The notes beneath the pieces were generated by a model that saw nothing but the letters and a program-made list of their open reading frames with translations, was not told the DNA's origin and did no database searches. Shown piece after piece: positions 11,216-19,936 of a stretch of 64,000 nucleotides of DNA. The DNA lies in the NCBI GenBank assembly GCA_965199855.1, contig OZ241326.1, positions 480,001 to 544,000 on the forward strand. The letters run 5' to 3'. The translations under genes and the position numbers were made by a program. The DNA is from a bacterium (GTDB taxonomy: Bacteria; UBA8248). Within the stretch, counting starts at the first letter, position 1; each line of letters opens with the position of its first letter.

Positions 11216-12253
11216 TCAGTTGAGGCAGACCTGCTTGAAGTCCTTGAAGTGATCCAGCACGTGCCCGGTTCCGCGAACCACGGCGGTGAGCGGATCCTTC
11301 ACCCTGTAGATGGGAAGCCCCGTCTCCTCGTGGAGCCTCGCGCCGAGTCCCTTCAGGAGCGAGCCGCCGCCCGCCAGCACGATTCCGCGCCGGTGGATGT
11401 CCGAGGCGAGCTCGGGGCTCGTCCTGGAGAGCGCCTTGCCGATGGACTCGACGATGGCCTTCACGGGGCTGTCGAGCGCCTCGCGCGCGTGCCGGTCGCT
11501 CAGCGTGATGGTGCGGGGGATGCCGGTGGAGACGTCCGCGCCGGCCACCTCCGTTTCGAGGGGCTCCGCGAGCGCCGTCGCCGCGCCGACGGCGATTTTC
11601 ACGCGCTCGGCCTCGAAGGCGCCGATGGAGAGGGCGTGGCGCCTCTTGACGTAGCGCTGGATGCACTCGTCCATCGCGTCTCCCGCGATGCGGAGGGACT
11701 CCGCGTAGGAGACGGCGTATCGGGAGATGACGGCCACCTCGGTCGTTCCGCCCCCGATGTCCACGATCATGGAGCCGGAGATTTCATGGACGGGCAGCTT
11801 GCTGCCGATGGCCGCGGCCATGGGCTCCTCTATCAGGTGGACGCGGGCGGCGCCGCACTGGGTGGCGGAGTCGATCACCGCCTTCATCTCGACGCTGGTG
11901 ATCCCGGCGGGGACGCAGATCATCATCGTGGGCCGGCCGAAGGAGCCCTTGGGGACGATGGCGCGGACGAAGTGGCGTATCATGGCCTTCGTCACGTCGA
12001 AGTCGGCGATGACGCCGTCCTTCATGGGCCGAACCGTCTGAATCGACTCCGGCGTGCGGCCGTACATCTCCTTGGCCTGCCTGCCCACCGCGAGCACGGC
12101 GCCCCCGTTTCCGGAGTTCAGGGCGACGACGGAGGGCTCGTCGAGGACGATTCCGCCGCTTTTCGTATAGACGAGCGTGTTCGCGGTTCCCAGGTCCATC
12201 GCTATGTTGGTTCCCGTCATCGCCCTGATCTTCTGCAGGACATGCAGCTTCAT
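11216..12253 (-). CDS. mreB: Actin-like rod-shape protein MreB (no mreCD adjacent)
   Basis: DLGTANT, EPSVVA, RPMKDGVIADF, EEPMAAAIG, DIGGGTTE, LAGGGSLL. Confidence 0.95.
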   Translation of the reverse strand: MKLHVLQKIRAMTGTNIAMDLGTANTLVYTKSGGIVLDEPSVVALNSGNGGAVLAVGRQAKEMYGRTPESIQTVRPMKDGVIADFDVTKAMIRHFVRAIVPKGSFGRPTMMICVPAGITSVEMKAVIDSATQCGAARVHLIEEPMAAAIGSKLPVHEISGSMIVDIGGGTTEVAVISRYAVSYAESLRIAGDAMDECIQRYVKRRHALSIGAFEAERVKIAVGAATALAEPLETEVAGADVSTGIPRTITLSDRHAREALDSPVKAIVESIGKALSRTSPELASDIHRRGIVLAGGGSLLKGLGARLHEETGLPIYRVKDPLTAVVRGTGHVLDHFKDFKQVCLN

Positions 12254-13710
12254 TCCTCGCGCCCCCCCATGAGACAGAGTTGATTCGCCGCGCCCCCCTT
12301 CTGGGCGAAGGCCAGCGCCTCGAGAGACGCCCGGACGAGGCTTTTCGGGTTTTGCGCGTTCTCCGGAAAGCACGCGGCGCCTATGGAAATGGTGATCCCG
12401 ACTTCTTTTCCCCCGGGGCGGAAGGGCGCGCGGCCGATGATGTGGATGATGCGCTCGGCCGCCGCCTCGGCGTATTCCTGCGAGGAGTCCCTGAGCAGCA
12501 GGAAGAAGCGCGGCCCCTCGCGCCGCGCCAGAATGTCGCTTCCCTTGACGAACTGCCGGAGGGCGTCGAAGAGGTGGAGGATCACCTCCTCCTCCGGCGC
12601 GTCCTCGAGCCCGGGCGCCGCGCCCGCGTCGGGGGCGATGCTCAGGAGCGCGAGCTGGCGCCCCCTGTCCCCGGCGTCGCGGAGCATTTCGGGAAGGCGG
12701 GAATGGAGGTATTCGGCGTTTCGTCCGCCGGTGAGGGGGTCGATCTCCAGGCGCGCCCGCCAGCGGGCCTCGTTCCTGCGGTGGGCGAGGGCGTCGGCGG
12801 CGGCCGCCGCCACGATTTCCCCCGGCTTCACGGAGGAGGCGTCGAAGCGGGCGCGCTCCCGGCTCGTGAACCCCAGACAGCCGAGCAGCTCGCCTCCCGC
12901 GATCAGGGGCAGGCACAGGGCGGAGCGGGCGTCGAAGCGCGGCTCCTCCGCGTGGAAGAGGGGCCGGGCGCCCTTCCGCCCCCGGAGGGAGGGCAGCCGC
13001 AGGCTCTCCCTTTTGGAGAGCGCGTAGCCCGCCACGCTGCCCCGCTCGCTGATTTCGACCTCGCCCAGGAACAGCTCGCCGAAGCCCGAGGTTCTCGCGA
13101 GGCGGGGGGTGCCTGCTTCCTCGTCGGCGAGGACGAGGAAGCAGGCGTCGAAGGGAAGCAACTCGCGCGGCGCCTGGCAGATCGCGTTCAGCAGCTGCTC
13201 CTCGCTCTCGCTCGCGCGGAGCGCGGAGAGGTAGCCGCCGAAGGCGGAGACGCTCATGGAGCGGCGCTCCGCCCGCGCGGCCGCCAGGGCGCCGTCTGTG
13301 AGATACGCGAATTGCTGGGCGAACCCCGCGAGTATCTTCTGGTCCCTCGACGTGAAGCACCAGCTTTTCTTGCTGTCGATGGCGAGCGCCCCCTTGCTGC
13401 GCGAGGAGGGCAGGGGCGCCGCCATGAAGGATTTGATGTCCTCGCTCCTGCCGTAGTAGCCGAGGACGATGGTGTCCTTGTCGAACTGGTTGACGCTCAG
13501 GGGCTCGTTGTTCTCCAGCACCCAGCCCATGAAGCCCTGGCCGGCCTCGACCGAGGCGTCCGCCACGACGTGGGGGCTCAGGCTGTGGTAGGCGGTGAGC
13601 TGGAACCTCCCGAGCCGCTTGTTTTCAAGGAACAGGCAGGCGGAATACGCCTCGGTCACGTTGCTGACGAGCGTGATGAGGGAGAAGAGGTCCCTTTCCA
13701 GATTCGTCAT
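12250..13710 (-). CDS. GAF-GAF protein with a degenerate GGDEF domain
   Basis: Two GAF-like repeats (GQGFMGWV..SFMAAPL; GSVAGYAL..SALCLPL), then DPLTG...ARREGPRF...ITISIG (GGDEF replaced by EGPRF); stop overlaps the mreB start. Confidence 0.8.
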   Translation of the reverse strand: MTNLERDLFSLITLVSNVTEAYSACLFLENKRLGRFQLTAYHSLSPHVVADASVEAGQGFMGWVLENNEPLSVNQFDKDTIVLGYYGRSEDIKSFMAAPLPSSRSKGALAIDSKKSWCFTSRDQKILAGFAQQFAYLTDGALAAARAERRSMSVSAFGGYLSALRASESEEQLLNAICQAPRELLPFDACFLVLADEEAGTPRLARTSGFGELFLGEVEISERGSVAGYALSKRESLRLPSLRGRKGARPLFHAEEPRFDARSALCLPLIAGGELLGCLGFTSRERARFDASSVKPGEIVAAAAADALAHRRNEARWRARLEIDPLTGGRNAEYLHSRLPEMLRDAGDRGRQLALLSIAPDAGAAPGLEDAPEEEVILHLFDALRQFVKGSDILARREGPRFFLLLRDSSQEYAEAAAERIIHIIGRAPFRPGGKEVGITISIGAACFPENAQNPKSLVRASLEALAFAQKGGAANQLCLMGGREE

Positions 13711-13746
13711 TTCCACCACCCGACGGGACGGATTCGGAATGGAGCG

Positions 13747-13925
13747 AATATAGCAGGGCGCATTCGGCTGTTTCAAGTAATTTTTTCACTAATCCTCATA
13801 TCCTTTTGTATTTATTTGTTTTATTCATGTAAAAATTTTACGATTGACGCCGAAACCTCAAGCGCTTCGTGCGGTGATTATCGTAAAACATTGATATTAA
13901 ATGATTTATTTTATTTCGAATGAGG
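13747..13925 (-). promoter_or_regulatory. AT-rich sigma70 promoter region of the GAF-mreB operon with an IHF-like site and palindromes
   Basis: Minus strand TTGAAA(13776-13771)-N18-TATATT(13752-13747) with extended -10 TG; TATCAATGTTTTA (13896-13884) fits WATCAANNNNTTR; GTAAAA-A-TTTTAC at 13829-13841. Confidence 0.6.
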
Positions 13926-14028
13926 CTTCCGGCCGCGCGCGCCGCCGGAGGGAGGAGGGAACGCCATATCTTGGGTCGCGCTCGTCCGCGGACGCCAGAT
14001 GTTGCGCCCGTCGGAGGGGGACGCGCCG

Positions 14029-14467: not shown

Positions 14468-15502
14468 TCAAGCCATACCCTCCGCATTCATCAGGATATG
14501 TTTTCCTATCTGCTCGGCAAGCCTGACGGGAACCGCGTTTCCTATCTGCATGGCGATGTGCGTGTTGGACCCGAAAAACTGGTATCCATCGGGAAAGGAC
14601 TGCAGAGCAGCGGCTTCGCGCAACGATATCGCCCTGTCCTGTGTCGGATGTCCGTATCGGCCGTTGGATATGCTGTGGCAACGACCCGTGAGGGCAGGTG
14701 CGGGACTGTCCCAGCGCATTCGTCCGTAAACGTCGGTGTGCCCTTCGTAGTTTCCCTTGTGACACGCCAATCTCAGGTGTTCCGGCCACGCCCTGCGGTC
14801 CCCACCATTATGCGGCGTCATCCTCAGTCGCTCCAGGTTCAATTCCGAGATGGACGCGGCGACATGGTTCGGCACCTCCAGATCGCGCTTCCCGGCCGCA
14901 ATCGCGGGAAAATGGGAAATGGCCTGTTTCACCGTCCTGAACGGAAGAAGTTGTTCGCCATATTTCGGCTCGGGCAACGAGGGTTGTCGGCGTCTCGTCG
15001 CCAGCAATATGAGGCGTCGTCTGTTCTGGGGCACCCCGTAGCATTTGGCGTCAAGAACGGCGAAAATATATCCGTAGTCGTTTTCGGTCAGCATCCTCCG
15101 AAACCGGCGAAAGGTACTGAAGCCGGGGACTCTCGCAAGGCCGGGAACATTTTCAATCAGCACGCATTCCGGCAAAACGGCTTCGACCAGACGTCCGAAT
15201 TGCCCCAGCAATGTCGCGTCATGCCGTCGCGCATTTTTTTTGCGTTGCGGACTGAACGGCTGACATGGGGCGCATCCGGCGAAGAGAATCTCATCAGATC
15301 GTTTGGTTCGACATTCAAGGCCCAGGTCCTTCGGTTCGAGCTCCCTTATGTCCGCTTTGACGAACCGAACACGAGGATTGTTGCGCTCGTATGTGGAACG
15401 GCAACGTCCGTCGCGGTCAACTCCGGCAATGACTTCAATGCCGGCGTCAAGCAAGCCGCGGGTCAGACCTCCGGCTCCGCAGAAGAAATCCCAGGCTTTC
15501 AT
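14468..15502 (-). CDS. DNA (cytosine-5)-methyltransferase
   Basis: Motif I DFFCGAGG, IV APCQ, VI ENV, VIII QNRRR, IX REAA, X IGNAVP. Confidence 0.95.
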   Translation of the reverse strand: MKAWDFFCGAGGLTRGLLDAGIEVIAGVDRDGRCRSTYERNNPRVRFVKADIRELEPKDLGLECRTKRSDEILFAGCAPCQPFSPQRKKNARRHDATLLGQFGRLVEAVLPECVLIENVPGLARVPGFSTFRRFRRMLTENDYGYIFAVLDAKCYGVPQNRRRLILLATRRRQPSLPEPKYGEQLLPFRTVKQAISHFPAIAAGKRDLEVPNHVAASISELNLERLRMTPHNGGDRRAWPEHLRLACHKGNYEGHTDVYGRMRWDSPAPALTGRCHSISNGRYGHPTQDRAISLREAAALQSFPDGYQFFGSNTHIAMQIGNAVPVRLAEQIGKHILMNAEGMA

Positions 15503-16620
15503 GCTTCTTCGGCGCCGGCGCCGCTCCTCAACTTATCAATGATCTCGTCGCGCCACGAATCTAAATCCCGATCCGGCAGACCCGGGCGGCCGGCGGTTTG
15601 CATGTACGCCCACGCGATCAACTCCCGAAACGGACTGTCAAGGGAAGCGATTCGGAGAAATGGTTTGTCTGACATGCCGATGTCTTCAACGGGAATGAGT
15701 GCCAGATCGCGCAGGTTGGCCGCCATTATAGGGATTTGATCCTTCAGGCTTGGGAAAGGGATGACAGCTCCCAGGTATCCTTGGGTAAGCATTGAACTGC
15801 GCAACTGATCTTTCAGCTTCCGAATTTTCATGCCTTTCAGGCTTGTAGTTTCAAGACCGTTTTTCATGGAACAGCATTTTGAAACCAGGACATCGCGCAC
15901 TTTCGGTTCGCGGTTTCCCGAGGCTGCAAGGTCACATGATGGCGTCAGAACTACCCGGAATGAAGCGGGATCATCAGGTGATGCGCTCCCGTCTCTCAGG
16001 ATATCGCCCAGTCGGATGTCTTCGGATACCGGAGGGAGCAGATATTGTTCCCAATCGGCGAGCGTTGTTTCGTTTGCTGGCGGCTCGTCCATCAGGGCGG
16101 CAAGACGACGCCTGCCCGATCGTTTAATGGTGTCAACGATACGTTGCGTATCGTCACGGAAGGCTTCAAAGGCATAGCGCGCGACATCCCGCATGGCCTT
16201 GGAAAAGGAGCGCCTGATATCCCGTTCGGCTTCTTTCAGTGTATCGACATGGGGGAGGAATTCACGAATTGCGTCCAATACCTTTTGTTCACTCCCACTC
16301 CCCTTTTTGATGCTTTTTACGAATGGGTGCCGCTCATACTTTTCAGGAATGTCAGGTAGTCCTGAATACACAACTATAGGGCAGAAATGTTTCTTCCAGA
16401 TGATGTCGAGAGTATTCCAACCCTCTCGCTCTCCTTCGCTGAAAACGTTACCGACAAAGAGATCGAGGATCACGATGTCAGGGCGGAACGACAAGAGTTT
16501 CTTCTTTGCATCATCAAAATCCGATACTTTTTGGCGCACGTTCTCTATCTTATCTTTTGTCAGCTTCCGGGCGGGTTCTATGACTTTTCGATCATCCTCG
16601 ATAAATAGCAGTTTCAGCAT
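15499..16620 (-). CDS. Receiver (REC) domain protein with an uncharacterised ~250-aa C-terminal region
   Basis: LFIEDD, IVILDL (phospho-Asp), VYSG, IKK; C-terminus has LGDIL...VLTPSCDL; no HTH recognised; ATGA overlap with the MTase. Confidence 0.8.
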   Translation of the reverse strand: MLKLLFIEDDRKVIEPARKLTKDKIENVRQKVSDFDDAKKKLLSFRPDIVILDLFVGNVFSEGEREGWNTLDIIWKKHFCPIVVYSGLPDIPEKYERHPFVKSIKKGSGSEQKVLDAIREFLPHVDTLKEAERDIRRSFSKAMRDVARYAFEAFRDDTQRIVDTIKRSGRRRLAALMDEPPANETTLADWEQYLLPPVSEDIRLGDILRDGSASPDDPASFRVVLTPSCDLAASGNREPKVRDVLVSKCCSMKNGLETTSLKGMKIRKLKDQLRSSMLTQGYLGAVIPFPSLKDQIPIMAANLRDLALIPVEDIGMSDKPFLRIASLDSPFRELIAWAYMQTAGRPGLPDRDLDSWRDEIIDKLRSGAGAEEA

Positions 16621-16631
16621 ATATCCCTCTT

Positions 16632-18794
16632 TTATGCTCGGCGTTGTTTCCGCAGAGGCAAGTCGAAAGCGAACGACGCGCCGCCTTTTGGTCCGTTGTA
16701 TTCTGTCCGCATGCGGCCTTCGTATGCGGCAACCAGTTCCGAAGCTACCGTAAGTCCCATTCCTATTCCGCCCGGTTTTCTTGTCACGCCGGGCCAGAAC
16801 ACCTTTTCCGCATAGTCTTTATCCAGGCCGGGGCCCGTATCCTGCACATCTACCAAGACACGCTCTCTGCCATTGATGGGCGTAAGGCTGAATTTCAGTT
16901 CTCTGCGTTCTTTCGGGACTTCCCGCATCCAATAGACCGCGTTTGTTACCAGATTGAGAATAATCGCGTCGAGTTCTCCTGGATCGACCGCCACCTTGGT
17001 TTCGGAGTCCGGGACAAGGCATCGCACATGGCTTCTTTTTATCTCGCTTCGATGGAGATACAGGCAATCCCTGATTCGCTCCTCCAAAATCGATTGGCGC
17101 TTTCGTCTCCTGAAATTACGGCTTGCGAGAGGGGCGAAGGTATCGGCGAGACGCTCCAGCGCATCTATCGCCCCGTCGGCGGAACGGAATTCTTCTTCCA
17201 GCTCTTTTTCCTTGAATGGACTGAATCTGTCCCGGATGAATTTCAGAAAGCTCCCGAGGGCTATCGTGCGATTGCGGATTTCATGCACCAGCATGTGGGC
17301 GAGGGTTCCGACGGTCGCCAGCCTGCTGTAATATATGAACCGCTCCTGAATCGCTTTGCGCGTCGAGTCCAGCGAACTGCTGAAAGTGCGAAGAAGAGGG
17401 ACCGCTTCGGATGCTTCAGCTCCTTCTTCTGCAAGCGCGGCAACTTCCTCGGTCAACTCTTCCGCGGACAGCTTCTCGAACAGATCATCCATCGGTTTTT
17501 CACGGTCGGGTTTAACGCGATCTTCATCCCGCTCATTTTCGAGAAGGGCAACGACCGCTTTCAGAATTTCCTCGAACTCCGCTACTTCGATACATGAGGC
17601 GAGGCGCTCGCGGTCGCTGGTGTCCTCTATTTTCGGATTACATTCAGCCGATACCGAGACGTAGCCGACAATCTGGCTCGTGCTCAGCCGCGTTCCGATC
17701 TTGCTGACGCGCCGCAGATCGAGTCCCAGCCAGTCGCGGGCGTTGTCGGATTTGGGCAGCACAAGAACGCCGTCCCGATATATGGAGATGCCTTTGTGCG
17801 CGCGAATGGATTTTCTGACCTGACTTTTCTGGAAGTCAAATTTTTCGGCGATTTCCTGCGTATCTTCACCGGCGATGTCCCATGCTCGAATCTCAAAAGA
17901 AAATGGCCCGCAATTCGCTCCCTTTTCGGAATATGGAAACTTCTCTTTATCTTGAATGGCGTCATGAATTTGTCGCCACGCAAGTTTCAGCTTCCTTCCC
18001 CTGGCGACATCGTCTTTCACAAGAGGGGCGAATCGATATGAACCCTCCACGTTTCCGTCCCTGTCGACACGCCCCCGAATGCTGTATTTCGGTTTCGACA
18101 AAAATTCGGGAGATTCGATCTTGACTGCCTCGGTTTGCTCATCTCCGAAACCGGAAAGGGAGATGTTGAAGTCGCCGAGGTCTGAAAATGGGGAGAGCAA
18201 ACGACCGAGATTCTCTTCGAGGTCCGATATGCGGCTTTCATTCCATTTTTCTTTCAGACCATAGATGCGCAGACGAGTTCCGGATTCACTGAAAGGCGAA
18301 CTGCCGGGATATTTTCTGCATCCCGCGAAGCTTTTCGATAGATCGTCTCCCTCGGAAATGTCGGACCAGTTGACGCTGACCTCCCAACAGGGCTTCCCAC
18401 GCGCCTTTGTCAGCATGCGAAGGCGTTTTCCGAGCCGCGCGACGGAAAGACGCCCGAGGCCTTTTTCACCGGAGACGCGACGCTCTTTCTTCCCGAGCTT
18501 CACAACGGGATTTATTTGCTTGTTTGGGGTCGCAACGAGGCACCAGACGTTCTCGATGATCTCTCTGGTCATGCCGCTGCCGTCGTCTTCGATTTCCAGA
18601 TACGCGCCCGGCCCAACATCTTCTCGAAATCGAAGCCAGACGTTTTGAGCAAAAGCATCGTATGAGTTTTTCACGAGTTCGATGACGGCCACGACGTCAT
18701 TGGTCACCAGGTCCGCTCCCAGAGCGGCGAATACCCTGGGGTGCATGCGGAAAGGTATCTGCTCGAAACTGCCTTCAGGCATTCTTTTCGCCAT
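16632..18794 (-). CDS. MORC/MutL-like GHKL ATPase fused to a HisKA-HATPase histidine kinase
   Basis: N-terminal ELVKNSYDA, DDGSGM, GEKGLGR, GT; C-terminal H-box LVHEIRN, N-box NLVTNA, DTGPG, GIGMGL; no TM segments. Confidence 0.9.
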   Translation of the reverse strand: MAKRMPEGSFEQIPFRMHPRVFAALGADLVTNDVVAVIELVKNSYDAFAQNVWLRFREDVGPGAYLEIEDDGSGMTREIIENVWCLVATPNKQINPVVKLGKKERRVSGEKGLGRLSVARLGKRLRMLTKARGKPCWEVSVNWSDISEGDDLSKSFAGCRKYPGSSPFSESGTRLRIYGLKEKWNESRISDLEENLGRLLSPFSDLGDFNISLSGFGDEQTEAVKIESPEFLSKPKYSIRGRVDRDGNVEGSYRFAPLVKDDVARGRKLKLAWRQIHDAIQDKEKFPYSEKGANCGPFSFEIRAWDIAGEDTQEIAEKFDFQKSQVRKSIRAHKGISIYRDGVLVLPKSDNARDWLGLDLRRVSKIGTRLSTSQIVGYVSVSAECNPKIEDTSDRERLASCIEVAEFEEILKAVVALLENERDEDRVKPDREKPMDDLFEKLSAEELTEEVAALAEEGAEASEAVPLLRTFSSSLDSTRKAIQERFIYYSRLATVGTLAHMLVHEIRNRTIALGSFLKFIRDRFSPFKEKELEEEFRSADGAIDALERLADTFAPLASRNFRRRKRQSILEERIRDCLYLHRSEIKRSHVRCLVPDSETKVAVDPGELDAIILNLVTNAVYWMREVPKERRELKFSLTPINGRERVLVDVQDTGPGLDKDYAEKVFWPGVTRKPGGIGMGLTVASELVAAYEGRMRTEYNGPKGGASFAFDLPLRKQRRA

Positions 18795-19296
18795 GTGATT
18801 TACGTTTCCCTGCCTGTCGTGCTTTTTGACCACGACGCAATGGAGGAATCTCCATCAGCCTTCGCTTTGAATTCAGAAAATCCGCCGCTTTCTTCGCTAT
18901 GGCATCCAATGCTTCCATGCGGTTTGTCCCCGGCTTTCGGAATCCGCATTCCCAGATTGTCAGGACTCGCCACCCAAGGCTTTGCAACTCCGCCAGGGCC
19001 GCCGAATCGCGCCTCGCGTTTTCTTCGAGTTTTGTTTTCCACCACGCAGAGCGCGTTCCCGGTATCGAAGAAAGATGGCAACCATGATAATGCCAGAAAC
19101 ATCCGTGGATGAATACTACGGAGAGATGCTTCGGAAAAACCATATCAGGCGTTCCCGGCAGGTCTTTCCGATGCAGGCGATAGCGGAACCCCATCGCAAA
19201 GAGTCGCCGCCGTATCTCCAGTTCCACCTTGGTGTTCTTGGCGCGAACCGAAGCCATCATTCGGCTTCTGGTTTTTTTATCAACGGTATCTATCAT
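18775..19296 (-). CDS. vsr: Very short patch repair endonuclease
   Basis: RSRMM..VR..NT..E, GFRYRLH, LPGTPD, FIHGCFWH.H.C, GWRVLTIWEC. Confidence 0.95.
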   Translation of the reverse strand: MIDTVDKKTRSRMMASVRAKNTKVELEIRRRLFAMGFRYRLHRKDLPGTPDMVFPKHLSVVFIHGCFWHYHGCHLSSIPGTRSAWWKTKLEENARRDSAALAELQSLGWRVLTIWECGFRKPGTNRMEALDAIAKKAADFLNSKRRLMEIPPLRRGQKARQAGKRKSHGEKNA

Positions 19297-19387
19297 GGCT
19301 GCGGACTCGACAGGCATTGACGCTCAAGGCTTCATGCCTGAAAGAATGCTCCATCACCTCTCAAAATACCGCTTCGCCCCCGCGTTG

Positions 19388-19936
19388 TCACCCCAACGCC
19401 CCCTCCCGCCAGTCCTTCATCGCCGCGCGGGTGGCGTCGAAGGCGAGCTCGGCGAAGTCGATCTCATGGGGGGCGACGAGCTTGACCTCGGTCGTCTCGG
19501 CGAGGGGGCGGGGGACGCCGGAGGTTACCCGCCCCGCGTAGGCGATGAGGACGGTGGGGTTTCCCTCGAAGGAATACGCCCCCAGAAGCGCGTCCACCGC
19601 CACCTCCACGCCCGCCTCCTCGCGCGCCTCGCGGGCGGCGGCGGCGGAGAGGACCTCGCCCCGGTTCACGAAGCCGCCCGGAAACGTCCACAGCCCCCTG
19701 CCGGGATTGTGGGCGCGCCGCACGAGCACCGCGCGGCCTTCCATCGTGGCGACCACGCCCGCCGCCACCTTGGGGTCGAGAAAATGCACGTGGCCGCAGG
19801 CGGCGTCCGCGCAGCAGAGCTGGCGCGAGCCGTCTCCCTCCGTCCAGGGACGATGGACGAGCGGACTCCCGCATGCCGCGCAGAAGCGAACGCGCCCGCC
19901 CAGGTGGGGATGGGCCTCGGGCGCCTCCGCGCTCAA
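19388..19936 (-). CDS. NUDIX hydrolase with N-terminal zinc ribbon
   Basis: FCAACG...CC...CG and Nudix box PGGFVNRGE...AREAREEAG. Confidence 0.85.
   Translation of the reverse strand: MSAEAPEAHPHLGGRVRFCAACGSPLVHRPWTEGDGSRQLCCADAACGHVHFLDPKVAAGVVATMEGRAVLVRRAHNPGRGLWTFPGGFVNRGEVLSAAAAREAREEAGVEVAVDALLGAYSFEGNPTVLIAYAGRVTSGVPRPLAETTEVKLVAPHEIDFAELAFDATRAAMKDWREGALG

Follow-up and report, generated by a model that had tools for sequence, protein, structure and literature searches.

We analysed a 64,000-nucleotide stretch of DNA (hereafter the window) from a bacterium of the lineage UBA8248 (assembly GCA_965199855.1, contig OZ241326.1, positions 480,001 to 544,000 of the forward strand). At 14468-19317 on its minus strand lies a cassette of four genes, with no others in that stretch, encoding a Vsr protein, a GHKL-histidine kinase, a protein with a receiver (REC) domain, and a C5 DNA methyltransferase (MTase). 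The REC protein's C-terminal domain, previously unassigned, is modelled with a MazF/CcdB-type toxin fold, and no restriction gene is conserved alongside it. The same gene set recurs at 60 loci in other genomes, an arrangement far beyond chance. Our preferred reading, which we hold at slightly less than an even chance, is that the cassette is a phosphorelay-gated toxin guarded by self-methylation and acting in abortive infection or addiction.

The vsr gene (18775-19317, minus strand) encodes 180 aa, with an alternative start, M8, at 19296, and its 3' end overlaps the start of the kinase gene. The kinase open reading frame (ORF; 16632-18833, minus strand) encodes 733 aa from a GTG; since the homologues are 720 aa long, the true start is probably the ATG at 18794, which gives 720 aa. 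The kinase gene is followed by an 11-nt spacer with a Shine-Dalgarno-like AGAGGGA and then by the ATG of the REC protein gene (REC-X; 15499-16620, minus strand, 373 aa). An ATGA is common to the REC stop codon and the start of the MTase gene (14468-15502, minus strand, 344 aa), and by this overlap the MTase appears to be translationally coupled to the REC gene. The GC content of the cassette was 54.1%, versus 70.1% in the remaining window. The first-pass annotation, made from the letters alone, had described four co-oriented genes with overlapping or nearly abutting ends in a lower-GC insert, and the ORF coordinates and composition agree with it; the vsr, kinase, REC and MTase genes form one operon.

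That annotation also had the REC protein accept a phosphoryl group and switch on a C-terminal effector. The receiver domain (REC residues 1-120; 16261..16620, minus strand) is divergent yet complete. Its match to PF00072 was weak (E 0.023), Foldseek matched it to receivers with a probability of 1.0, and the residues expected of a working receiver, listed earlier as EDD/D/S/K, are all in place (E8-D9-D10, D53, S86 and K106). Among 53 REC sequences D53 was kept in 53, D9 and K106 in 52 each, and S86 in 49. A helical linker (residues 121-184; 16069..16260, minus strand) follows, for which AlphaFold2 (AF2) predicted helices at residues 110-177 with low confidence over residues 141-200 (predicted local distance difference test, pLDDT, 44-53). 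The linker has an RRR-AA-MD motif, of which R167, R171, R172, A174, A175, M177 and D178 were invariant among 32 sequences. No family match was obtained for residues 185-373, which together with the stop codon occupy 15499..16068 on the minus strand. A Foldseek search with the full-length REC model returned receiver domains only, and the C-terminal domain (C-domain) was therefore folded alone.

Modelled by AF2 with 45 sequences, the C-domain reached a pLDDT of 91 and a predicted TM-score of 0.81. A structural search of this model (VIA-align against representatives, with the best 50 matches listed) was headed by MazF-mt3 at Z 10.5, with 103 aligned of the chain's 105 residues and a root-mean-square deviation of 2.8, followed by S. 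aureus MazF (Z 9.7), CcdB (9.1), Kid (8.3) and CptN (7.2). In all, twelve chains of the MazF/CcdB/Kid superfamily scored Z of at least 7.2; ToxN and AbiQ scored 3.9-4.7, and the next unrelated chain 3.6. The best Foldseek rows for the C-domain were all MazF, at E about 1e-3. Compared with the MazF/CcdB fold, the model has one helix inserted and two helices added C-terminally. On this modelling the output of the REC protein is predicted to be a MazF/CcdB-type toxin domain and not a restriction nuclease, and this evidence favours the abortive-infection or addiction branch over true restriction. Of the earlier proposal, an effector gating either an R-M (restriction-modification) or an abortive-infection system, the effector itself stands and now has a putative fold, and the restriction branch is disfavoured.

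The C-domain was also predicted to form a homodimer, with an ipSAE of 0.42 versus 0.00 for the best control. Of 30 solved homodimers 20 attain the ipSAE mark at which the predicted dimer is supported, as does 1 of 23 monomers. The pass may partly reflect likeness, since MazF and CcdB dimers have already been solved. The runs agreed to at least 93%, with a partner pLDDT of at least 83. The invariant residues of the C-domain are D206, C229-D230, C249, D328-S-P-F-x-E333, R345 and P349. The predicted interface is built of the invariant DSPFRE and RPGLPDRD motifs; D206, C229-D230 and C249 lie outside it in the model and are candidates for an active or binding site.

The kinase has an N-terminal MORC/paraMORC-type GHKL ATPase domain of the Bergerat fold (residues 33-228; 18150..18737, minus strand; PF13589, E 1.7e-16), with the HATPase_c_3 match at residues 48-162. 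Bergerat motifs I-III are present in it and invariant, with E52, N56, D59, D83, G85, G87, K124, G125 and G127 kept in 53/53 homologues. At the other end lies a histidine-kinase core (residues 490-733 plus the stop codon; 16632..17366, minus strand; PF02518, E 1.8e-20), made up of a dimerization and histidine phosphotransfer (DHp) region with H517-E518 and a catalytic and ATP-binding (CA) region, in which HATPase_c matched residues 617-728. Models of AtoS, FixL and ZraS matched residues 490-732, FixL chimeras in the PDB matched at E 2.5e-18, and H517, E518, N627, N631, D665, G667, G669, G689, G691 and G693 (the last six in the DxGxG and GxGxG boxes) were invariant in 53/53. No membrane span was found in the kinase, which is taken to be soluble because no segment is hydrophobic enough for one (maximum Kyte-Doolittle mean over 19 residues, 1.53). 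Two apparently intact ATP-binding modules with no membrane sensor, as first read, are thus what the homologues and the hydropathy profile show. The middle region (residues 229-489; 17367..18149, minus strand) had no Pfam match and is presumed to hold an S5-like transducer and a coiled linker, the transducer by analogy with the MORC/MutL architecture outlined by Iyer 2008. Kinase residues 346-405 formed the best-conserved stretch beyond the GHKL core (identity 0.83-0.85 over windows 346-390), and Y352 and R353 were invariant in 53/53.

Judged by sequence similarity, the named proteins closest to the GHKL domain appear to be restriction enzymes. NF050001 (BbrUII/HgiDII) matched at E 3.7e-19 with 68.7 bits, against a cut-off of 550 and over positions 8-200 of 659 only, and the PADLOC model REase_II matched the GHKL part at E 1.3e-8. 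These relatives speak for true restriction, in which the C-domain would be a novel nuclease or nickase for DNA, built on a MazF-like scaffold; the GHKL clamp would recruit it, phosphorylation would license it, and it would cut unmethylated invading DNA. The whole would then amount to a restriction enzyme dependent on ATP and on a phosphorelay. So does a separate locus (L074, G442:C1:1981000-1993000), where the gene for a BbrUII/HgiDII-like GHKL protein of 676 aa precedes that for a 592-aa fusion of Vsr and a C5 methylase with a zinc ribbon, within a defence island that also encodes a SMODS nucleotidyltransferase, a DprA-like protein, a PIN protein, DUF4238 and an Eco57I-type methylase. Among the invariant residues the acidic D206, D230, D328 and E333 might serve as metal ligands, and Iyer et al. 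2008 and the Tiamat preprint (10.64898/2026.09.30.754977) put forward the idea that paraMORCs detect DNA lacking methylation and bring nucleases to it. The homology between the cassette kinase and the L074 protein is, however, limited to about 130 GHKL residues at 28% identity, and no nuclease fold was present among the 50 best structural matches of the C-domain, the strong ones of which were all RNase or gyrase-poison toxins. We consider true restriction quite unlikely, also in view of the co-variation result given below.

Both enzymes that flank the kinase/REC pair are intact, as had been stated. Vsr scored 137.6 bits with TIGR00632 (cut-off 97.85; PF03852 E 3.3e-29; PADLOC Vsr E 1.3e-32), the MTase scored 143.3 bits with TIGR00675 (cut-off 100.65; PF00145 E 3.3e-54; PADLOC MTase_II E 3.3e-87), and the key residues of the MTase motifs FCGAGG, PCQ (C80), ENV, QxRRR and GNAVP were kept in 57/57. 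Pfam, NCBIfam and PADLOC scans recognised no restriction endonuclease in the cassette, in line with the first description, and none is conserved across the 61 loci considered below. A PD-(D/E)xK restriction nuclease in the REC protein was a separate candidate and was rejected by the fold searches. Vsr repairs T:G mismatches that arise from deamination of 5-methylcytosine, and together with a C5 methylase it forms a well-known pair that needs no further partner. Because Vsr is often present in the cassette, methylation of the host chromosome would be long-term.

Relatives of the cassette proteins are numerous. With E ≤ 0.001, 686 REC relatives were found among 8000 scored candidates and 1972 kinase relatives among 7999. 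A profile of the C-domain, searched against 1.84 billion 50%-identity clusters, matched 950 representatives at E ≤ 0.001, 548 at E ≤ 1e-10 and 271 at E ≤ 1e-30; the best 150 matches were nearly all 355-400 aa long with the domain C-terminal, and the remainder were shorter fragments. A scan of one genome per species gave the set of 60 loci, which come from Nitrospirota, Chloroflexota, Planctomycetota, Desulfobacterota, Spirochaetota, Bacteroidota, Acidobacteriota, Latescibacterota and Proteobacteria. In 57 of the 60 the REC gene has the kinase gene directly upstream, and the other three loci end at a contig edge. A C5 MTase was found within 7 kb in 58 (it is missing in L040 and in the truncated L058) and a Vsr within 7 kb in 36. 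When the ORFs of 61 loci, the window included, were clustered all against all, REC-X was present in 61, the MTase in 59, the kinase in 58 and Vsr in 37; no fifth conserved gene emerged, and the remaining recurrent clusters were antisense shadow ORFs inside the four families. The phosphorelay residues H517 and D53 were kept in 53/53 and the catalytic MTase residue C80 in 57/57.

The linkage of the kinase/REC pair to the MTase, which the first-pass annotation had assumed, is thus conserved in 57-58 of the 60 loci. It makes it hardly credible that an orphan methylase-Vsr pair has simply come to lie beside an unrelated two-component system. Such a chance meeting would draw on the self-sufficiency of the Vsr and C5 methylase pair, which is general knowledge, but the adjacency recurs in many phyla and with overlapping gene ends. 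Within the 36 loci that have the common MTase type, pairwise identities were also closely correlated (kinase-REC 0.92, kinase-MTase 0.92, REC-MTase 0.86).

Some copies are decayed. REC-X is broken in three loci: L026 has an early stop, L038 a stop at codon 91 and L042 an internal deletion. An intact MTase adjoins the broken gene in L026 and L042 and lies nearby on the opposite strand in L038. Frameshifts divide the kinase into three pieces in L009 and the methylase into two in L019. In such decayed or frameshifted copies, assembly errors and real breaks are not distinguishable. A deep-branching copy (26% identity) is carried by the conjugative plasmid pREB1 of Acaryochloris marina (L075, NC_009926.1:10904-24010), where the genes run from a 645-aa hypothetical protein through the C5 methylase and the GHKL kinase to REC-X, and a NACHT protein is encoded nearby.

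The mechanism we propose is that the cassette acts as a mobile R-M-like module, for defence or addiction, whose restriction endonuclease has given way to a toxin and a two-component phosphorelay. The MTase would mark the host chromosome constitutively, and for that reason Vsr would travel with the cassette. The N-terminal GHKL/S5 clamp of the kinase would sense a DNA-borne cue, most likely DNA without the mark, be it that of a phage or that of the host once the methylase is lost or inhibited. Closure of the clamp, driven by ATP, would be passed through the DHp helices and switch autophosphorylation at H517, and the phosphoryl group would move from H517 to D53 of the REC protein. Phosphorylation of the REC protein would then release or assemble the dimeric MazF/CcdB-like domain, which would arrest the cell by cutting RNA, like MazF, Kid or ToxN, or by poisoning gyrase, like CcdB. 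The outcome would be abortive infection or post-segregational killing and not cleavage of the invader. In favour of this mechanism we count the conserved linkage and co-inheritance of the genes, their invariant catalytic residues, the modelled fold and predicted dimer of the effector, the mobility and R-M-rich surroundings of the cassette, the survival of an intact MTase where REC-X is broken, and the precedent of Ambrosia, described below. The cue of the kinase is the step of this mechanism that we trust least, and for the specific version of it, in which the MORC-like clamp and kinase read the 5-methylcytosine mark and report unmarked DNA to a REC-gated MazF/CcdB-like toxin, we remain doubtful.

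A number of results, gathered in this and the following three paragraphs, weigh against the reading of a toxin guarded by self-methylation. The cassette is known here from sequence and predicted structure alone. The toxin call is made at the level of the modelled fold: the Pfam families PemK_toxin and CcdB did not match the C-domain at E ≤ 0.1, and a PDB sequence-profile search with the C-domain returned no MazF or CcdB at E ≤ 10. An ESM Atlas look-up of the domain gave only unnamed clusters, with scores of 0.90-0.91. The catalytic residues of MazF, which we take to be Arg and Thr, differ from D206, C229-D230 and C249, and the chemistry may differ with them. The cassette holds neither an antitoxin-like gene nor a buffer REC.

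The MTase is also less closely tied to the pair than the common type suggests. Across 48 loci the kinase-REC correlation was 0.88, whereas the MTase correlations were only 0.54 and 0.33, and over this whole set the MTase is loosely coupled to the pair. In L040 an intact kinase and REC-X lie between housekeeping genes with no adjacent MTase, and the nearest MTase relative in that genome is 43% identical and about 110 kb off. Eleven loci, all of them Chloroflexota, have a different MTase type (type B), 37-40% identical, which lies upstream of the kinase/REC pair in 8 and downstream in 3.

Co-variation with the MTase type was measured in 30-residue sliding windows as the ratio of between-group to within-group identity, the groups being those of the MTase. 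No kinase segment tracked the MTase type (ratio 0.74-0.99 in 47 windows, lowest in the N-terminal tail and at residues 526-555), nor did any segment of REC-X (ratio 0.85-1.00 in 23 windows). The absence of a segment that diverges with the MTase argues against a classical restriction enzyme, which must share the specificity of its MTase, and against a sequence-specific reader. The earlier proposal that the GHKL module senses unmethylated DNA accordingly drew no support from this test. Unless the two MTase types act on one target, the sensor lacks sequence specificity. A common target is possible because identity between the types was not lower in the target-recognition region (0.25-0.49) than in some core windows (0.18-0.30), and it does not follow from the negative co-variation result that DNA is not read.

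In an alternative reading, the kinase would sense infection by a cue other than methylation, for which a phage protein, the ends of DNA or the levels of nucleotides are candidates, and the REC protein would still fire the toxin-like domain, with the methylase as a co-effector or an independently useful passenger instead of a self-mark. In its favour, the MTase has on at least one occasion been replaced and moved beside an unbroken kinase/REC pair, no kinase or REC-X segment follows its type, and L040 lacks an adjacent copy. A precedent is Ambrosia of P. aeruginosa, reported in a 2025 preprint (10.1101/2025.09.30.679545), which consists of AbrR (XRE), AbrA (N6 methylase), AbrB (HATPase kinase), AbrC (REC) and AbrD (HNH). 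According to its published description it defends against phage and requires all five genes and the REC Asp (D60A was inactive), yet its own methylation failed to protect phage, so self-marking is not a given in this class. The cassette, however, has its MTase adjacent in 58 of 60 loci and co-evolving in the main group (r 0.86-0.92), which is too tight for a passenger. The Vsr of 36 of the 60 loci makes sense only if the host genome is always methylated, and the ATGA coupling would tie the synthesis of REC-X to that of the MTase, as expected of a toxin and its safeguard. We judge a methylation-independent cue unlikely.

In five of the Chloroflexota loci a protein of about 800 aa is encoded directly downstream of the type B MTase (L016:1349-3781, L018:1342-3771, L021:9308-11704, L028:9301-11697 and, split, L026:9302-11690). 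It had no Pfam, NCBIfam or PADLOC match and could be the cognate nuclease of the type B MTase or a fifth component of this sub-clade.

The cassette was present in 2 of 23 genomes of the genus. In the second species (G415; L070/L073, G415:C2:2016172-2021859) it lies at the equivalent chromosomal locus, next to a homologue of the same 117-aa ORF as in the window; REC-X is 61% identical and the DNA 71% identical over 3.65 kb. This pattern reflects either an old insertion lost from the other 21 genomes or repeated insertion at a hot spot. The closest relative (G404) is without the cassette, but because its synteny breaks at the cassette edge neither a clean site of insertion nor a duplicated target could be made out. 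Neither an integrase nor a transposase lies inside the cassette or directly adjoining it, the window holds no tRNA, and no REC-X homologue was found in phage records. The cassette has been horizontally acquired, and it is inherited and transferred as a unit.

Genes within 1.3 kb of the cassette were scanned with Pfam in 55 loci (116 of 300 flanking ORFs, with no control set). R-M or defence-type neighbours were found in 23 of the 55, a count that is suggestive only, given the lack of a control set. They included type I and type III subunits, EcoRII, XhoI, AspBHI/Mrr, HNH, OLD-like proteins and AAA_15/21 ATPases, as well as DUF499, DUF1156, Schlafen/Fic and a second HEF_HK kinase. Integrases or transposases were near the cassette in 4 loci.

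These surroundings bear on a role outside defence, in which the pair would tune gene expression or the methylase, for instance by an output that binds or processes RNA. Control of R-M systems is what Bellieny-Rabelo et al. 2021 proposed for comparable pairs (PMC8011034), and the description of Ambrosia (10.1101/2025.09.30.679545) has its expression rise on infection and says that its REC protein holds a winged helix-turn-helix, with a transcriptional role. In the cassette, by contrast, REC-X is without a DNA-binding output domain and its modelled output is a toxin fold; no restriction gene is conserved that could be regulated, and the patchy lateral distribution and R-M-rich neighbourhoods fit conflict systems and not housekeeping. 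Non-defence regulation is in our estimate very improbable.

In 4 of the 55 loci the cassette has an HNH or HNH_2 gene as its direct neighbour (L008:943-1710, L046:2003-2887, L043:9251-9991 and L013:6328-7362), and these neighbours recall the HNH of Ambrosia and the HNH_2 association of the HEF_HK sister clade described below. At L025:3-2471 (minus strand) a second GHKL protein, with a true HEF_HK (PF19191) and HATPase_c_3, adjoins the cassette on the opposite strand, so that both clades of R-M-associated kinases stand side by side in one genome.

In the window itself the cassette is neighboured by the 117-aa ORF, which had no Pfam match, a GAF-GGDEF protein (12250-13776, minus strand) and a NUDIX hydrolase. 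A promoter-like site, GTGACA-17-TATTTT (19363..19391, minus strand), was picked up by a consensus scan in the low-GC leader directly 5' of vsr; the scan gave 4 sites in the region versus 2.1 expected, which is weak evidence for a vsr promoter. Outside the cassette, the intergenic stretch 5' of the GAF-GGDEF gene (13780-13930) is strongly AT-rich and accounts for the low GC of the bin 13500-13999.

The toxin-fold output, if the models hold, turns a vague association of kinase/REC pairs with R-M into a circuit that can be tested, made up of four small soluble proteins with clear sites for point mutants (GHKL E52, H517, D53, the D/CD/C motif and MTase C80). The pREB1 copy of Acaryochloris marina, a cultured cyanobacterium, is a convenient experimental source. 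Should the kinase read methylation, the cassette would offer a minimal setting in which to study the reading of epigenetic marks by GHKL clamps, and a direct bacterial model for the sensing of DNA methylation state by MORC-type ATPases. Antitoxin-free control of a MazF/CcdB-type toxin would be new, and the circuit would be the first in which epigenetic self/non-self discrimination is coupled to two-component signalling and cell arrest, not cleavage. If the kinase is blind to methylation, the cassette would still be a distinct addition to the few two-component defence systems, such as Detocs and Ambrosia.

Comparison with known systems begins with the effector. The C-domain shares its modelled fold and predicted homodimer with MazF, Kid (PemK) and CcdB and with ToxN, AbiQ and CptN, of which ToxN and AbiQ act in abortive infection according to the titles of their structure entries. 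It differs in being about 190 residues long, fused to a receiver and marked by its own invariant D...CD...C motif, with neither an antitoxin protein nor an antitoxin RNA; phosphorylation would take over the control that an antitoxin otherwise exerts.

Like Detocs, the cassette would use a cytoplasmic histidine kinase that senses infection and phosphorylates a REC-effector fusion harmful to the cell. Detocs reportedly combines a TPR-type sensor with a buffer REC and a PNP ATP-nucleosidase effector and lacks a methylase, whereas the cassette has a GHKL sensor, a MazF-fold effector and an integral C5 methylase with Vsr. No Detocs model gave a PADLOC hit at E ≤ 0.1, the presence of such models in PADLOC-DB 2.0.0 being unconfirmed. 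No system model of PADLOC-DB 2.0.0 fits the cassette, and only REase_II (on the GHKL part), SduA, Vsr and MTase_II matched its proteins. The SduA match was weak (E 7.5e-4), aligning REC residues 3-84 with the N-terminal part of one model, and Pfam gave no match to DUF4263, the Shedu nuclease.

An N-terminal MORC/paraMORC Bergerat ATPase is also shared with BbrUII/HgiDII (NF050001), with paraMORC3/Shedu type I-D VcSduA (PMC12137116) and with Tiamat (10.64898/2026.09.30.754977), which occur in R-M or defence contexts and often have C5 methylases and Vsr as neighbours. A tie between cytosine methylases and the MORC/paraMORC ATPases of bacteria goes back to 2008 (Iyer 2008), and no mechanism is known to have been demonstrated. 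In BbrUII/HgiDII, VcSduA and Tiamat the ATPase is described as fused directly to a PD-(D/E)xK-type nuclease; that of the cassette is joined to a histidine-kinase core, and a separate, putative REC-toxin protein provides the output. MADS and MANTIS were set aside from their descriptions as unrelated multi-gene BREX-like systems, and WonAB (PMC12137116) as an unrelated ABC-ATPase/nuclease pair.

The nearest described class is that of Bellieny-Rabelo, Pretorius and Moleleki 2021 (PMC8011034), in which kinases with HATPase_c_3, HEF_HK and HATPase_c adjoin Response_reg_2 proteins. The main text reports 91.6% linkage in 644 regions and enrichment of C5 methylases, Vsr and other R-M genes; the pairs, regarded there as a regulatory two-component system derived from paraMORCs, are mostly from Proteobacteria, often have the MTase upstream and have various nucleases nearby, and no fold is assigned there to the Response_reg_2 C-terminal region. 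The cassette resembles them in its soluble HATPase_c_3, DHp and HATPase_c kinase, its adjoining REC-like protein, in which no further domain is annotated, and its linkage to C5 methylases and Vsr. Its proteins did not match PF19191 or PF19192 at E ≤ 0.1, with none genome-wide at E ≤ 10; true PF19192 members score 51-101 bits, and the DHp region of the kinase matches general HisKA-type models and not PF19191. The true members were taken from 3 of 400 genomes of one class, and the PF19192 proteins retrieved are 555-617 aa long with an extra middle region, compared with 373 aa for the cassette REC protein. When a PF19192-type profile of 42 proteins was aligned with the C-domain by hhalign, the probability was 76% (E 2.3e-5, over only 72 of about 185 columns), with LTPSCDLV aligned with LSPACDLV as the hallmark; full-length profiles dropped to 29%. 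The C-terminal domains may be homologous, and on these alignments the cassette would be a compact sister clade within the HEF_HK/Response_reg_2 superfamily.

Going by its published description, Ambrosia is the closest experimental analogue. Both have an operon in which a REC protein is encoded together with a methylase and a histidine-kinase-like ATPase; Ambrosia, set apart here by that description and not by a comparison of sequences, has five genes that include XRE and HNH, both absent from the cassette, and its methylase is an N6-adenine enzyme whereas that of the cassette is C5. The literature consulted held no description of a REC-fused MazF/CcdB-like domain or of the four-gene system, and the supplementary tables of PMC8011034 might list members. 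The first-pass annotation had called the system uncharacterised. This stands for the exact cassette, which matches no PADLOC system or Pfam pair, and does not stand for its class, which was described computationally in 2021 (PMC8011034) and has in Ambrosia a related system that was validated in a 2025 preprint. The cassette is a distinct clade, missed by current family models and PADLOC 2.0.0 and not categorically new, that stands beside the HEF_HK/Response_reg_2 pairs and Ambrosia.

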